Below are positions 4,076 to 28,653 of a stretch of 64,000 bases of DNA, piece by piece. The notes under the pieces were generated by a model, which worked only from the letters and a program-made list of their open reading frames with translations, made no database searches and had not been told where the DNA came from. This DNA is from a virus (lineage: Duplodnaviria > Caudoviricetes), in IMG/VR virus record IMGVR_UViG_3300013280_000006, positions 1 to 64,000 of that record; one strand, given 5' to 3'. The position numbers and the translations under genes are program-made. Positions within the stretch are counted from its first letter, which is position 1; each line of letters begins with the position of its first letter.

Positions 4076-4188
4076 AGTGATAAAGAGCCACAAAACAGTT
4101 TTCTAAATTGAATAAAAGGGGTTCTGACCAGTGATAAAGAGCCAAACACCACAAATAGGGGGCCCCGATGTTAATCAAATAAAAGGGG
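4076..4188. repeat. Imperfect tandem direct repeats (iteron-like)
   Basis: agtgataaagagcca at 4076-4090 and 4130-4144; aataaaagggg at 4111-4121 and 4178-4188. Confidence 0.8.
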
Positions 4189-4191
4189 TGC

Positions 4192-5073
4192 TCAAATCTT
4201 TTTATTTTTTGTTAAGTGTGTGAAGTGATTTGTACTGTGTTCTCCGAGTAGGTATGTGATAAACGTATTACTAAATCCATACTCAGGAACACATATTGGT
4301 GGAAAATAGTATAGTGTTGGCAGTATCGTATTTAAAAATAGTTGTTTGTCCCGCACCACCGCCACTTGATCTTGCAGTGACGGGCTGCTATCATCTGGGT
4401 GTACTCTAAATAAGTAGTTTTGACAGTCTTCCAAGATAATTGTTGTGGTTACTGCTCGTTTCTTGTGTATTAGTCCGTAATTAAAATCTTGTCGTGTGAA
4501 TAGTAGCGCTGACTTTAAATCAACAGATCTTCGAATTATTCTAGAGATGTATGCAGACCAACTTGTGGTTTTGTTCGTTTTTGTATTTGGTATGTACGCG
4601 CCTATACCTTCTTTAGTAATTACTCTGTAACTTAACTGACCAGTTGTTTTTTCGAGCAATCTGTATATTTCTACGAATCGACGGTAATGACACCACGGAC
4701 ACCACCTTGAATTACAGATCGTATTCCAGCTATGTGATTTAAGTTCTGCATTGTTGTCTTTTGGTTTAATGACAGGTAAAACACCAATAGGTCTACAGTT
4801 GGCCACACTTTGTAACAAATTTGTTACTTTGTGTGGTGTTAGTTGTCTTAGGTTAATTGAGTTCGGAATTCCTAATTCCTGCAAAGATCGAACATTAACG
4901 AGACTGCTTTGCACTTCCGCACAAAAGCCTCTAAGTAATCCGTACATTGTACGAATGTTATTTGCGTTATTTTTATCTAGTGTTGTGAGCGTGCTTTCTA
5001 ATGCTGATTGAAGTGCGGCAGCTTGTATAGCGGACTTTGTAAGTCGTACTACAAGTTGTGATGGGTTTATCAT
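4192..5073 (-). CDS. Hypothetical protein with Rep_1/IS91-type Zn-binding motif
   Basis: CNSRWCPWCHYRR resembles the CxSRxCPxCxxR motif of rolling-circle Rep and IS91 transposase Zn domains, but I see no HUH motif. Start placed at ATG 5073 because it forms an ATGA overlap with the stop of 5070..5315; the track start is 5187. Confidence 0.55.
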   Translation of the reverse strand: MINPSQLVVRLTKSAIQAAALQSALESTLTTLDKNNANNIRTMYGLLRGFCAEVQSSLVNVRSLQELGIPNSINLRQLTPHKVTNLLQSVANCRPIGVLPVIKPKDNNAELKSHSWNTICNSRWCPWCHYRRFVEIYRLLEKTTGQLSYRVITKEGIGAYIPNTKTNKTTSWSAYISRIIRRSVDLKSALLFTRQDFNYGLIHKKRAVTTTIILEDCQNYLFRVHPDDSSPSLQDQVAVVRDKQLFLNTILPTLYYFPPICVPEYGFSNTFITYLLGEHSTNHFTHLTKNKKI

Positions 5074-20868: not shown

Positions 20869-20908
20869 AAACAAAGGCTACCCGGGCACCAGTAATACCC
20901 GGGTAGCC
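20869..20908 (-). terminator. Rho-independent terminator
   Basis: 11-bp stem ggctacccggg/cccgggtagcc (20876-86/20898-908) followed on the minus strand by TTTGTTT, just downstream of 20948..21208. Confidence 0.75.
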
Positions 20909-20947
20909 GCCGAACGTCGTGCACAAGCACAACGCCCAGCCGAGTGT

Positions 20948-21438: not shown

Positions 21439-21559
21439 AGCACACCGATTATACTCAGCACAATAATTACAGTAAGTGCAGTGAGTAAACCTGGCAGAAA
21501 ACGCGGATGCTCAAATATTGTTGAAATCAGACTTTGTTCTTCGTCTGCTTTCCACATAA

Positions 21560-21643
21560 AGCCAACGGCAGGATTCGAACCTGCGGTGTGCTCGCGCAAC
21601 AGCATTACAAAAGCTGCCCTTTCAGCCACTCAGGCACGTTGGC
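21560..21643 (-). tRNA. trnT: tRNA with UGU anticodon (Thr) and long variable arm, CCA not encoded
   Basis: GCCAACG-TG-CCTGAGTGGCTGAAAGG-G-CAGCT-TT[TGT]AA-TGCTG-TTGCGCGAGCACACC-GCAGG-TTCGAAT-CCTGC-CGTTGGC-T; perfect 7-bp acceptor stem, 5-bp T stem and TTCGAAT loop. Confidence 0.85.
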
Positions 21644-21656
21644 TATGGGACCCCTC

Positions 21657-21687
21657 GGCGCTGCTCTACCAGCTGAGCTAAGGCGGC
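21657..21687 (-). pseudogene. 5' half of a class I tRNA (acceptor 5' strand plus D arm), truncated
   Basis: GCCGCCT-TA-GCTC-AGCTGGTA-GAGC-A-GCGCC, then no pairing anticodon stem or T arm; ends 13 nt before the full tRNA. Confidence 0.65.
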
Positions 21688-21870
21688 TAAGGAATCTAAT
21701 GATACTCTACTGCAAACAAGAAAAACATACCCATTATTTGAATAGGTAAAAATTAGTAGAAAATGTCTAAGTCGCGGTAACTAGGTTAACTGCAGCTTTT
21801 CATTAATCGAAACAGTGCCTTTGATTAAAAAGCACCGAGTGACGACTAATAAAAAGCTGTAGGTACAAAG

Positions 21871-22164
21871 TCACGGTTTGATCTGCTGAATGTCCTGCAA
21901 GATTTTCTGCAGACGAGCTTGGTAGGTTTGCTCGTCTATCGAGAGAGCTCCAGGCTTGGTAGATGCAGAGATGTCCTCTACTAATTCCCCGACTTCTCTG
22001 GCCCTCTTCAGAAGTTCAGACAAGAGCTCGGTCAGCGAAGCGACCCGCTCTTTCGACGTGTTCAGGTACGTCAAGTCATCCATTTTGCTGCTCCTTCTGG
22101 GCGAGAATGCAAGATCGCACCACGCAGTGTATGTGATGCCAGCTATGTATAGAACCTGTTTCAA
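21871..22164 (-). CDS. Small coiled-coil hypothetical protein
   Basis: Likely starts at internal MDDLTYL (AGGAG RBS). Confidence 0.55.
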   Translation of the reverse strand: MKQVLYIAGITYTAWCDLAFSPRRSSKMDDLTYLNTSKERVASLTELLSELLKRAREVGELVEDISASTKPGALSIDEQTYQARLQKILQDIQQIKP

Positions 22165-25089: not shown

Positions 25090-26357
25090 ATGAATTTATT
25101 TACTCGTACATTCATATCCTGCGACGCGAATTTTACTCGGTATCTGTGAGGTCCATTAATGTCATCTTTACTACGTAATTGTACAGGAAGTCGCCACGTA
25201 ACTCCATGTTTTTCATTTACCCCGTGAATCCATTGCACAGGTTCAGCGTAGTAGCCACCTTTGTTATACAGATACTCATCTGTTGCTTTCCACGAGCCGT
25301 TAATGATCGACTCACCAACCGTGTTCTGCATCATTACTGCAGTATGCCAGTGACCCATGACCTTATAGTGAATAGTTTGATTTTTAGCGCTGTGAATCGA
25401 CTGTAGTCTTCTGTTTCGCCTTTCGATACCATACCAAGGAATTCCAGCTACTGCGTTAATGTCGTCCCCGTGTGCGATGTTAAATGTGTACCCTTCAATC
25501 TCTACGTTTACGCTATAGGAATCTGGAATCAAGAATTCTACGTTGGTTAGTTCACGGCACAACGAAGCTGAGGTCTCTCCTACAAGATAGTCCAAGTTTC
25601 GCAAAGCCTGTGCGTACTCTTTGTACTGGGCTTGCCGCCCGTGGTTACCAGGTACATAAATACACTTAACCTGTTCGAAATGCGAAGCTAAATCTCTGAT
25701 AGCAAGCGCATGCAACTGCCCCACAGCCATAGCATTGGCAAAGTCATTTCTTAGTGTGCTCTCGTTTGTTCCTCCGTGAATGGCTCCGTTCACGTGATCA
25801 CCGTAGAACAAAATCCATAGAGTTGGAAAGTTGTAGTTGTTAAGTGTATTCTTAGCGAAGTCTAAAGTTCTCTGTACGTAGTTCTCAGCTCGACGCAAAG
25901 CAACACTGAGGTTGTAGTTCTCTAGGTTATTCACTCTGTGCGGAAGCACCACCTGATCAGCGTGCTCGTCACTCCAGTGCATCACCAGAGATTCGGTATG
26001 AGTCTTTCCAGCCGTGCCTAGGTTTAGAGCAGACGGTAGCGCCTTCATGGGCGCGCAGTACTCTGCGGCCACCTCACGAATTGTGTCGACCGCGTTCTCG
26101 TACCGCAGCGTGTTCTTGCGCTGGGCCTCTAGCGACTTGATCTTGCCTTCCTTCTCTAACAGCAGCCGCTCTAGTAGGCGTATATGTGCGTCTTTGCCTT
26201 CAATAGATTCTGGAAATAAATGACTTTTTAAAACTGCAACAGAGCACTTAACTTTGCCAGCAATCAACTTCAGATCAACTTCAGTTGGTTCATGACCTAA
26301 AGAGGCCACCAATTTTGCAATGTACGACTTGTGTCCCGCAGAAAGTTGGGTGATCAT
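25086..26357 (-). CDS. Calcineurin-like metallophosphoesterase with N-terminal coiled coil
   Basis: HWSDEH, YGDHVNG, PGNHGR, AHGDD, MGHWH and NGSW motifs. Confidence 0.85.
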   Translation of the reverse strand: MITQLSAGHKSYIAKLVASLGHEPTEVDLKLIAGKVKCSVAVLKSHLFPESIEGKDAHIRLLERLLLEKEGKIKSLEAQRKNTLRYENAVDTIREVAAEYCAPMKALPSALNLGTAGKTHTESLVMHWSDEHADQVVLPHRVNNLENYNLSVALRRAENYVQRTLDFAKNTLNNYNFPTLWILFYGDHVNGAIHGGTNESTLRNDFANAMAVGQLHALAIRDLASHFEQVKCIYVPGNHGRQAQYKEYAQALRNLDYLVGETSASLCRELTNVEFLIPDSYSVNVEIEGYTFNIAHGDDINAVAGIPWYGIERRNRRLQSIHSAKNQTIHYKVMGHWHTAVMMQNTVGESIINGSWKATDEYLYNKGGYYAEPVQWIHGVNEKHGVTWRLPVQLRSKDDINGPHRYRVKFASQDMNVRVNKFI

Positions 26358-27664
26358 TTTCTATCTTTCATTGCGACTGTACGCCCTGTTTCGAGCTGGT
26401 AGCCGACCCATAGATCAGAGCCTGGCTTTTGGTACAGTCTTGCTGATATTCGTGGATGCGCCAAGATGGTGATACACAGCTTTTCGCCATTATGCTCTAC
26501 ACGCCAAGAGTTCTCAAAGTGAGAAGCGCCAGCTCCAATAGTACCATCTGGTCTAAACTCAAGTATTCTTGACCTACCGTCAACAACGTACCAGAAGTGC
26601 TTGTATTTGTTGATGCGCGCCCGAAGCGCAACAGCAGATGGTTCCTCATCTGGGATACCCTTAAACACTATACCATCCCACTTAGAACGAAGTTCTTTGA
26701 CGTACTGCAGACCATCACTTTCGTACAAGAATCCCGGTATCTTTATGTTGACTCCGTCGTATCTCCACTTATCGAGATTACGGTGTTGAAAGATCCGACG
26801 ACCATCGAAGTCGTGCTGACACATCGTGAGTGAATTCCCGGTTACTGGAAGCTGTTGAATGGGGAATGGAACCATGGAGTACTTCGAATCGTACATCCTC
26901 CAGGCCATATGGTATGTCTCTTTATCACCCCATACATGCCGATAGTAGAAGTCGCTATGTTCGTTGAGGTGCATAGTGAGCGCGAGCTCTTTCCATCGTC
27001 GAGCTTTGTTAACCACGATCTGACCACTTTCAAACTCTTCCTCATCTCTGTACTCAACCCGACAGATCTTCCATATTGAACGATCAGGGGCGAGGCGTAA
27101 GTAGTCGGGCCAGAAGATAGCCCCGGTCTCTTTGTACTGCGGAGTATCGAACAAAAATTCTGGATTTACTAGTGGAAAGTTATCAGCGTCAAGAAACAAT
27201 ACTTCCTCAAACCGACTGTGAATAATCGAGTATGGGTTTAGTTCCCAGCCATTCAAGATACGGCAAGGGTGCTCTTTACGCTTTTGGTAAGCATCAATGC
27301 AAGTAACGCCGAGAGGTCTTACGAGCTCGACCATTTCTTTGTTCATTTCATATGGACCAAGATACCAGAACTCTACTGGTAATTTGCATCCAAGTTCTCT
27401 AAGGCGACGCACTGCAACGTAGGCACACGTAAAGTACGTCTGACCACCAGCACACATCACGATACCGCGTCCTTTATACTTATTTCTAGGGTACGGAGAC
27501 GTCGAGCGCATGACCTCTTGGGCTTTGTTTTGGTAATCCTGAAAGATCTCCTCTTGTGTTTTTGTTGCTGTAGAAGACGTCATGGTAGCCTTTCGCGCTG
27601 CTTGTGCGCCCTTTCTCTCTAGGACCTGTAAATAAAAACGAGAATTTCTATTTTCAACAGACAT
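26354..27664 (-). CDS. GT71-like alpha-mannosyltransferase (MNN2/Mannosyl_trans3 type)
   Basis: RGIVMCAGG, RELGCKLPVEFWY, HSRFEEVLFLDADNFP (DxD), GAIFWPDY, ESGQIVVNK, WGDKETY. Confidence 0.85.
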   Translation of the reverse strand: MSVENRNSRFYLQVLERKGAQAARKATMTSSTATKTQEEIFQDYQNKAQEVMRSTSPYPRNKYKGRGIVMCAGGQTYFTCAYVAVRRLRELGCKLPVEFWYLGPYEMNKEMVELVRPLGVTCIDAYQKRKEHPCRILNGWELNPYSIIHSRFEEVLFLDADNFPLVNPEFLFDTPQYKETGAIFWPDYLRLAPDRSIWKICRVEYRDEEEFESGQIVVNKARRWKELALTMHLNEHSDFYYRHVWGDKETYHMAWRMYDSKYSMVPFPIQQLPVTGNSLTMCQHDFDGRRIFQHRNLDKWRYDGVNIKIPGFLYESDGLQYVKELRSKWDGIVFKGIPDEEPSAVALRARINKYKHFWYVVDGRSRILEFRPDGTIGAGASHFENSWRVEHNGEKLCITILAHPRISARLYQKPGSDLWVGYQLETGRTVAMKDRK

Positions 27665-28653
27665 TAGATGCTCTCGAATATACGATCAAAAAAAGATAAA
27701 CAAGCACCATCATCAATCTCAGGTCTTAATGAATCGTTGATTAAGTACGGCTGCCTGAACATCTCGTCGTACTTAGCTTTATTGTTGTCTAATTCAATGA
27801 TGTGTTCGATTAGGTCTTGCTCGTCACGATAATTTGGGTAGAACAAAAATGATTTTGTATTAAAGTGTTTTCCTATATTTGGGTCACCCCAGTAAATGGG
27901 CATTGTGCGAGACATCATTGCATCTACGATTTTTTCTGACGTATATCCAGGAACACTGGTATTCTCAAAACAGATATTAAACTTAAATTGCCTCAGATAC
28001 CGTCGCTTTGATTCGCTATGTGTCTCGCCTTCCAGCGTTCTAATGATAGGTGTGTTAACGTATCCGTGACGTACAAGATTACCAGGACAATGCACGAACT
28101 TATACTTCATCAATTTTTCAAAAAACCTAATTCTAAACTCTGCCATATAGTTACTGAATACTATGCAGCAAAACTCCGGCCTGTCCCATGAGGAAGACTC
28201 GTCAGGCTTTTTTACGATAGCTCTAAATCTATCAGCAGACTGCCATCGCAGATATACGGACCATGCCGGAATATTGAAGTGACGGTCATTTGCAATTCCG
28301 TCTGGTGTGTTCTCTGAATTCGATAGGTAGTAGTCAAACATACCGATGCATGGAACACCAACTTCTAAGGTATATAGCACCTTTATAGAGTCTTTGGGTA
28401 TTAGATGATAAATACCGGCTACTCCGCGCGGGGCTTCAGGTGGCAGCACATGCCCATCTGCGTACACAGAACAGAGCGATACCTGTGGCTTGTCGCTAAG
28501 CACTAATTCATACTTATCCTCTAAATACGGATGCATACGGAGAAAATCGTCCGGAACAAAAGGCTTAAAGTAGCATCCACCCCACCAACCATAGTAATTT
28601 ACAAGGATTTTTTTACGTGCCATTACGATCTCCAAATTGCTTACACAGCTCAC
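27664..28653 (-). CDS. GT10 alpha-1,3-fucosyltransferase-like protein
   Basis: FKFNICFENTSVPGYTSEKIVDAMM..TMPIYWG is the GT10 alpha3-motif. Confidence 0.88.
   Translation of the reverse strand: MSCVSNLEIVMARKKILVNYYGWWGGCYFKPFVPDDFLRMHPYLEDKYELVLSDKPQVSLCSVYADGHVLPPEAPRGVAGIYHLIPKDSIKVLYTLEVGVPCIGMFDYYLSNSENTPDGIANDRHFNIPAWSVYLRWQSADRFRAIVKKPDESSSWDRPEFCCIVFSNYMAEFRIRFFEKLMKYKFVHCPGNLVRHGYVNTPIIRTLEGETHSESKRRYLRQFKFNICFENTSVPGYTSEKIVDAMMSRTMPIYWGDPNIGKHFNTKSFLFYPNYRDEQDLIEHIIELDNNKAKYDEMFRQPYLINDSLRPEIDDGACLSFFDRIFESI

Follow-up and report, generated by a model that had tools for sequence, protein, structure and literature searches.

The window, that is, the whole stretch of DNA analysed here, comprises the first 64 kb of an 82,891-base IMG/VR record with a CheckV completeness of about 40%. 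It is marked as a myovirus by its terminase, tail sheath and baseplate wedge proteins, all identified through PHROGs. Megablast and blastn searches with the locus and the tRNA against GenBank phages returned no match; relatives of the tRNA came to light only with degenerate patterns. On the minus strand, at 21560-21643, lies a complete tRNA gene of 84 nt with anticodon UGU and a class II shape. ARAGORN, a check proposed in the earlier note, called tRNA-Thr(tgt) at 21559-21644 on the minus strand as the sole tRNA in the 64-kb window. Rfam RF00005 matched 21560-21643 (minus) over its full model (1-71) with 54.3 bits and an E value of 2.3e-10 (gathering score 29). Both programs thus agree on an 84-nt tRNA with the Thr anticodon UGU, as the earlier note had claimed at this position. 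The entire 82,891-base record contains no tRNA besides this tRNA-Thr(UGU). The gene, its parts and the features upstream of it are as follows:

21560..21643, minus strand: tRNA gene with anticodon UGU and U73 at 21560, without an encoded CCA (ARAGORN, Rfam RF00005)
21637..21643, minus strand: 5' strand of the acceptor stem, GCCAACG, which pairs with 21561-21567 (CGUUGGC) and yields G1-C72 and C2-G71 (sequence)
21618..21634, minus strand: D arm, CCUGAGUGGCUGAAAGG (sequence and ARAGORN structure)
21600..21616, minus strand: anticodon arm, CAGCU-UUUGUAA-UGCUG, with the anticodon UGU at 21607-21609 (sequence and ARAGORN structure)
21585..21599, minus strand: variable region of 15 nt, U-UGC-GCGA-GCA-CACC (ARAGORN structure)
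21568..21584, minus strand: T arm, GCAGG-UUCGAAU-CCUGC (sequence)
21657..21687, minus strand: 31-nt remnant, 5' half of a class I tRNA (sequence, local matches)
21813..21837, minus strand: terminator-like hairpin with T tract, a consensus match only, which follows the upstream ORF 21871-22164 (minus)

Structure and genomic surroundings of the tRNA gene

With a hairpin-forming variable region of at least 10 nt and a D stem of 3 bp, the tRNA shows class II architecture. Its D arm is of the Ser/Tyr/Leu type: C10-G25, C11-G24 and U12-A23 form the stem, G13 stands opposite A22, and the loop carries G18 G19. U8 and G9 precede this arm and G26 follows it. In the anticodon loop UUUGUAA the UGU is centred and followed by A37 and A38, and U31-U39 is mismatched. 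The variable region consists of a U, a 3-bp stem (UGC/GCA) around a GCGA tetraloop and the unpaired bases CACC. All tertiary landmarks are present (U8, A14, G18 G19 and the T loop UUCGAAU), and apart from U31-U39 the stems are perfect. The earlier note had described a Ser/Tyr/Leu-like D arm, a 15-nt variable region with a TGC-GCGA-GCA stem, a centred UGU with A37-A38, the pairs G1-C72/C2-G71 and a U31-U39 mismatch, and each of these elements could be read from the sequence as described.

According to the Rfam alignment, the acceptor and T stems have a 7/5 layout. ARAGORN drew an eighth acceptor pair (A-1 with U73), which we rejected: the closest homologue, located on another viral contig (L002), is unable to form it, and therefore 7/5 is the conserved form. 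L002 was reached with our first search pattern, composed of D arm and anticodon loop, and is the nearest viral relative, 83% identical to the window tRNA. In this relative, pair 31-39 is restored to A-U, G-C replaces A-U at pair 28-42, and the arm stem reads UGA/UCA around GUAA versus UGC/GCA in the window tRNA, a compensatory exchange that leaves the tetraloop within GNRA. A shifted anticodon was discarded as well, whether through a U inserted into a Tyr tRNA or through a loop of 9 nt, since in L002 the stem forms five clean pairs and the 7-nt loop is identical. A sequencing error in the anticodon, for which the earlier note had considered UGA or GUA as the true reading, appears unlikely, given that L002 combines an identical loop (UUUGUAA) with compensatory stem changes.

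In the remnant at 21657-21687, the acceptor strand (GCCGCCU) is followed by an entire D arm and by the 5' side of an anticodon stem; its end lies 13 nt upstream of the tRNA-Thr gene. Locally, the remnant matched best to 5' halves of tRNAs for Lys, Asn, Thr and Phe. As candidates for the 3' half matched only at chance level within the window, we ruled out a split or permuted tRNA. Judging by its sequence, the remnant is probably the leftover of an older tRNA gene that was replaced or recombined, and it probably lies on one transcript with the tRNA-Thr. Folding the tRNA together with its leader revealed no structure beyond chance (z = -0.9). The hairpin at 21813-21837 likely marks the start of a separate tRNA transcription unit; a consensus scan between this hairpin and the tRNA detected no sigma-70-like promoter.

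Neighbouring ORFs matched no PHROGs or Pfam families, and thus no synthetase or tRNA enzyme is linked to the gene. Of the 13 ORFs located up to about 4 kb from the tRNA, none had a homologue in the stretches fetched around other viral carriers, hence the tRNA gene moves independently of its surroundings. For the SbcD-like neighbour no relative was found in IMG/VR, and the terminase relatives (about 40% identity) are too distant for synteny. Adjoining this SbcD-like exonuclease, two adjacent minus-strand ORFs (26354-28653) encode a Mannosyl_trans3 protein (PF11051, E 1.9e-38) and a fucosyltransferase family 10 C-terminal domain (PF00852, E 4e-14). A GC-rich double hairpin at 20871-20934 (minus) gave a sub-threshold Rfam ftsZ-DE match (27.3 bits versus 72.2, E 0.017) that probably reflects chance or a terminator.

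A family of long-armed tRNA-Thr genes in phages and bacteria

In the literature that we searched, reviews included, we found no description of a class II tRNA-Thr. The earlier note had suggested a search of phage tRNA sets for homologues and had named a type already common in phages and charged only with Thr as an outcome that would refute its claim. As to abundance, this is what we observed. A looser pattern (class II D arm, YUYGUAA-type loop, 19-28 nt, T loop), which is biased towards one D-loop length, recovered the long-armed design from at least 50 IMG/VR viral contigs and at least 60 bacterial genome contigs. BLAST with one viral allele returned 107 GenBank phage records, nearly all of T5-like Salmonella or Escherichia phages, in which the 87-nt gene is called tRNA-Thr wherever it is annotated in GenBank. 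The nearest bacterial relative in our sample (L096) shares 73% identity with the window tRNA. By these sequence comparisons, the window gene is a new, fairly divergent member of the long-armed tRNA-Thr family.

We then aligned 61 distinct family members without reference to structure. The cloverleaf was paired in 96.8% of cells versus 67.1% in shuffles, and the covariation score was 0.734 versus 0.196, a value reached by 0 of 500 shuffles. When partners were slid by one column, pairing fell to 41-44%. Both-sided changes occurred in 19 of the 23 pairs. G1-C72 was found in all 61 members and C2-G71 in 60. Pairing within the D stem reaches 99.5% over all members, with covariation at two of its three pairs; all five pairs of the anticodon stem covary, with a non-standard 31-39 pair in 8 of the 61 members, and the T arm is 100% paired. 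Even the variable-arm helix is 77-79% paired, with at least four pair types per pair, despite the sequence-only alignment. Anticodons are either UGU or CGU. An encoded CCA is missing in many members, bacterial ones included. The discriminator is U (25) or A (16), and G occurs only once, on the Ser-type body of L069.

The class II tRNA-Thr(UGU) of T5-like phages, labelled tRNA-Thr in GenBank, is exemplified by bas33_0122 of Escherichia phage HildyBeyeler (Bas33) and by Salmonella phage SP01. It resembles the window tRNA in UG at positions 8-9, in a GAGYGG-type D loop, in the anticodon UGU and in a 3-bp arm with GNRA loop followed by four unpaired bases. However, judged on near-identical alleles (L010, L012, L022, L034, L039), it is less than 66% identical to the window gene. 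It differs further in having A73, an encoded CCA, a proper 31-39 pair and the host-like UAAUCA in the anticodon stem, and it belongs to a group of 20-odd clustered tRNAs, as opposed to the window gene, which is alone in its record.

Most of the genomic matches (at least 60) are from Eremiobacterota (Vulcanimicrobiota), where in many genomes the long-armed tRNA-Thr adjoins a Tyr(GUA)-Gly(UCC)-Thr(GGU) cluster. A covariance model (R1) applied to 121 genomes of this phylum gave clear top matches of 84-88 nt in at least about 18 of them, although the model is unspecific, with Ser tRNAs scoring 70-80 bits. We took a complete tRNA census of one closed Eremiobacterota chromosome (G001, OY970223.1). 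Rfam detected 45 tRNAs, all of which could be typed, and the set is complete. Among these, an 83-nt class II gene has the only UGU anticodon; in acceptor stem, T stem and U73 it exactly matches the class I Thr(CGU) of the same chromosome. Consequently, this bacterium must read ACA as Thr with a long-armed tRNA. A Ser reading of ACA would rewrite its whole proteome.

On an Acetobacteraceae chromosome (G002, OZ241208.1; L163 beside L162) we observed two Thr(UGU) genes, namely an 86-nt class II form that is identical in several Acetobacteraceae genomes and a 74-nt class I form with a D loop that lacks the conserved GG. The chromosomal class II forms of Eremiobacterota and Acetobacteraceae, for which we found no publication, are the bacterial sequences nearest to the window tRNA in our sample and share with it U73, an often unencoded CCA and the arm plan. 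They differ by one acceptor pair (GCCGACG versus GCCAACG in the window tRNA), in the D stem (GGC/GCC versus CCU/AGG) and in being a cellular, syntenic core gene.

A separate case is the L069 tRNA (4159-4248, minus), which stems from a Rhodobacteraceae MAG contig (DNSZ01000180.1). This 90-nt tRNA combines a Ser-type body with anticodon UGU: it has a GGAGGCG acceptor strand, G2-C71, G73, a 6-bp arm stem with one unpaired base after it and the loop CUUGUAA, and is one base away from Ser(UGA). Going by its sequence, it could be a genuine mistranslator that inserts Ser at ACA or a mutated Ser gene.

Identity elements and codon use

ThrRS belongs to the class II synthetases, which approach the tRNA from the variable-loop side. 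In E. coli, the Thr identity set includes G1-C72, C2-G71, G35 and U36, all of which are present in the window tRNA. These match what bacterial ThrRS reads, i.e. the acceptor pairs 1-72 and 2-71 together with the anticodon (PMC9976931). Class I tRNA-Thr(UGU), represented by E. coli thrU and the T5 allele (AY543070, 28667-28741), likewise has UGU, A37, G1-C72 and C2-G71; it is presumed to be charged by ThrRS and to decode ACA, and phage copies of it are known substitutes for the host tRNA. Its body differs, with a variable loop of 4-5 nt, a 4-bp D stem and a AGCUCAGU-type loop, in contrast to the 15-nt hairpin variable region and the 3-bp Ser/Tyr-type D arm of the window tRNA.

To compare the arms, we used the ARAGORN structures of all class II tRNAs in our sample:

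Thr (long-armed family): modal 3-bp arm stem with mostly GNRA loop; 3-4 unpaired bases 3' of the stem; discriminator U or A
Tyr: 4-bp arm stem; 3 unpaired bases 3' of the stem; A73
Ser (22 in the sample): modal 5-6 bp arm stem; 1 unpaired base 3' of the stem; G73 in 18 of 22
Leu (9 in the sample): 4-bp arm stem; 2 unpaired bases 3' of the stem; A73 in 7 of 9

The arm geometry of the window tRNA is Tyr-like and not Ser-like. Bacterial class II tRNA-Tyr, the nearest geometry in the sample, shares the 3-bp D stem and G13 opposite A22 and likewise has a short arm stem, with three unpaired bases 3' of it. Yet tRNA-Tyr has A73, the anticodon GUA and U35, the major TyrRS determinant (PMC9976931), whereas the window tRNA has U73 and G35. 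A tRNA-Leu is contradicted by U73 and by the four unpaired bases. From the Ser tRNAs the window tRNA is set apart by its 3-bp stem, by the four unpaired bases where Ser tRNAs have one, by U73 in place of G73, and by C2-G71 where L069 and the Ser tRNAs from G001 and G002 have G2-C71.

The combination of a long variable arm with the anticodon of another amino acid is shared with the allo-tRNAs, which Mukai et al. reportedly described in 2017 as charged with Ser despite non-Ser anticodons. These and other Ser-charged tRNAs with non-Ser anticodons have been reviewed (PMC7609411). Allo-tRNAs have an 8/4 or 9/3 layout and Ser identity, however, while the window tRNA has Thr identity pairs and no G73, and its 7/5 layout departs from all layouts of allo-tRNAs and tRNA-Sec-like molecules (8/4, 9/3, 8/5, 9/4).

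Codon use was analysed next. ACA is the commonest Thr codon of the phage (32% of Thr codons, 21.9 per 1000). In an alignment of the terminase with 107 homologues, the 14 columns at ACA codons contained Thr at a frequency of 0.35 and Ser at 0.18. Other ACN columns gave similar values (Thr 0.21-0.35, Ser 0.09-0.16), and at Ser codons the relation was reversed (Thr 0.02-0.12, Ser 0.26-0.62). With only 14 columns, this comparison rules out a reassignment of ACA but not low-level misreading. Distant terminase relatives carry class I Thr(UGU) along with Arg(UCU), Ile(UAU) and Met tRNAs, which is mostly the usual phage cargo for A-ending codons. Since ACA is the commonest Thr codon and the tRNAs of these relatives serve A-ending codons, codon supply is the simplest role. 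In seven of the relatives (L181, L183, L185, L187, L188, L190, L230) the tRNAs form a small class I cluster about 5-6 kb from the terminase, placed differently from the gene in the window; their Thr(UGU) has U73, lacks CCA and is usually accompanied by Arg(UCU), Ile(UAU) and Met.

We therefore consider it probable, as far as sequence features can tell, that the window tRNA, for all its unusual scaffold, is charged by ThrRS and decodes ACA in the ordinary way. The transcript would be matured by host RNase P and by the host CCA-adding enzyme, the latter being required because no CCA is encoded. Host ThrRS would then attach Thr by way of G1-C72, C2-G71, G35 and U36, and the charged tRNA-Thr(UGU) would read ACA. 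We infer that charging takes place by the ThrRS of the phage's host and that codon supply is the main benefit. The class II scaffold would be an alternative natural design of tRNA-Thr(UGU) that circulates in phages and is chromosomal in some bacteria. Of the two possibilities raised in the earlier note, a Thr tRNA on an unusual body is thus the one favoured by the conserved ThrRS identity pairs, by the conserved UGU/CGU anticodons and by the sole ACA decoder of OY970223.1.

Possible nuclease evasion and other readings

The earlier note had also wondered whether the unusual body evades host anticodon nucleases. Host tRNA-Thr(UGU) is a target of PARIS AriB (PMC12409363) and of P2 OLD (PMC12445682). 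In E. coli tRNA-Thr(UGU), the AriB cut falls between positions 40 and 41, with U16 of the D loop being read as well; E. coli Thr(CGU) is barely cut (PMC12409363). For P2 OLD, the cleavage site is a CNG pseudo-palindrome of the anticodon stem (PMC12445682). Rescue by phage Thr(UGU) tRNAs has been described for both nucleases (PMC12409363, PMC12445682). Resistant phage tRNAs comprise T5 tRNA-Lys, tRNA-Thr and tRNA-Asn in the case of AriB, and tRNA-Thr6 and tRNA-Thr21 in that of P2 OLD. The window tRNA is the same phage-borne isoacceptor. At the AriB site it has G40-C41, like the barely cut E. coli Thr(CGU), and its CNG/CNG pair is shifted by one base pair. It is possible, though we would not count on it, that the extra arm and the altered D loop make this tRNA a poorer substrate for nucleases that act on the anticodon stem.

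Taken further, counter-defence might be the main role, with the class II scaffold selected for resistance to AriB- or OLD-type nucleases and the tRNA, still carrying Thr, replacing the destroyed host tRNA. This account overlaps with that of an ordinary ACA decoder and differs only in the purpose of the long arm; we regard it as tentative. Beyond the G40-C41 match, it can draw on Bas33 (HildyBeyeler), in which the 87-nt class II gene is the only Thr tRNA and keeps the host-like UAAUCA cut site. T5 tRNA-Lys alone rescued Bas33 from PARIS (PMC12409363), an indirect hint that AriB spares a long-armed Thr tRNA and that such a tRNA is functional in E. coli. Among phage tRNAs, those for Lys and Asn, the remaining targets of AriB, can be long-armed too. 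However, the nuclease-resistant phage tRNAs published so far belong to class I and evade cutting thanks to altered bases in their anticodon arms. Both the T5 Thr allele (75 nt) and the P2 OLD rescue tRNA-Thr6 are class I, and the resistance of the latter is due to its anticodon arm (PMC12445682). The variable arm is mentioned in neither publication (0 occurrences in PMC12409363 and PMC12445682). Moreover, this shape also serves Eremiobacterota and Acetobacteraceae as a chromosomal tRNA of their own, so that it is not a phage-only device and evasion is not the whole story. By analogy with the published systems, evasion is plausible as an add-on hypothesis and not as the explanation.

Several phage tRNAs for other amino acids carry the same short-hairpin arm, namely Lys(UUU/CUU), Asn, Gln and Glu tRNAs (L004:5144-5231, L007:5289-5375, L026, L017, L016). 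On L004, the Lys and both Thr tRNAs have nearly one arm sequence (U-GGC-NNNN-GCC-CAUC), a likeness which suggests that the arm was exchanged or co-selected within that genome. In the HildyBeyeler/Bas33 stretch (L170, MZ501074.1, 66774-90860), the Asn tRNA is long as well (86 nt) and both Leu tRNAs have class I length (77 nt); ARAGORN adds an unannotated tRNA-Ser(ACU)-like gene at 1695-1768. A broader and rather speculative proposal is that the class II scaffold serves as a general, sequence-independent shield of ANN-decoding tRNAs (Thr, Lys, Asn) from AriB- or OLD-type nucleases gripping the anticodon stem and D loop, and that phages spread it as a module which Eremiobacterota and Acetobacteraceae fixed for the same reason. 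If true, the window tRNA would exemplify a hitherto undescribed design that an arms race has brought into the core translation apparatus.

We also considered a gene that is decaying or does not decode, i.e. a pseudogene or a decoy RNA that soaks up a tRNA-binding defence protein without a role in translation. The U31-U39 mismatch, the missing CCA and the neighbouring truncated tRNA may point to decay, a promoter-like site was not detected, and competition is a possible effect of overexpressed viral tRNAs (PMC12409363). But all other stems are perfect, the conserved tertiary bases are complete and the Rfam score lies far above threshold, while a non-standard 31-39 pair and an unencoded CCA recur in otherwise conserved family members; we judge this reading improbable. 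About as improbable is the second possibility of the earlier note, a long arm that recruits SerRS so that ACA is partly read as Ser in a deliberate mistranslation: recognition by SerRS depends mainly on the long arm and disregards the anticodon (PMC9976931), the D arm resembles that of Ser tRNAs, and L069 illustrates that Ser-type bodies with UGU exist, but U73, C2-G71, the short Tyr-like arm, the use of the same design as sole ACA decoder in G001 and the Thr-like ACA columns of the terminase all speak against it.

According to reviews, long variable arms belong to Leu, Ser, bacterial Tyr and Sec tRNAs (PMC9976931, PMC7609411); a conserved long-armed tRNA-Thr is thus an exception to this rule. 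Roughly 100 GenBank genes with this design were already known under the label tRNA-Thr. New here are the complete tRNA census of a closed Eremiobacterota chromosome, the Tyr-like geometry of the arm and the codon-column test. For annotation, some caution is advisable, as isotype callers that weigh the body may label long-armed Thr genes as Ser, Tyr or Leu. The design raises the questions of how ThrRS accepts the long arm, how SerRS, LeuRS and TyrRS reject it and whether the arm protects against nucleases. For the phage itself the significance is modest: one tRNA-Thr, predicted to work, for its commonest Thr codon. The long-armed tRNA-Thr as such is abundant in phages, and at least one bacterial chromosome has no other ACA decoder.
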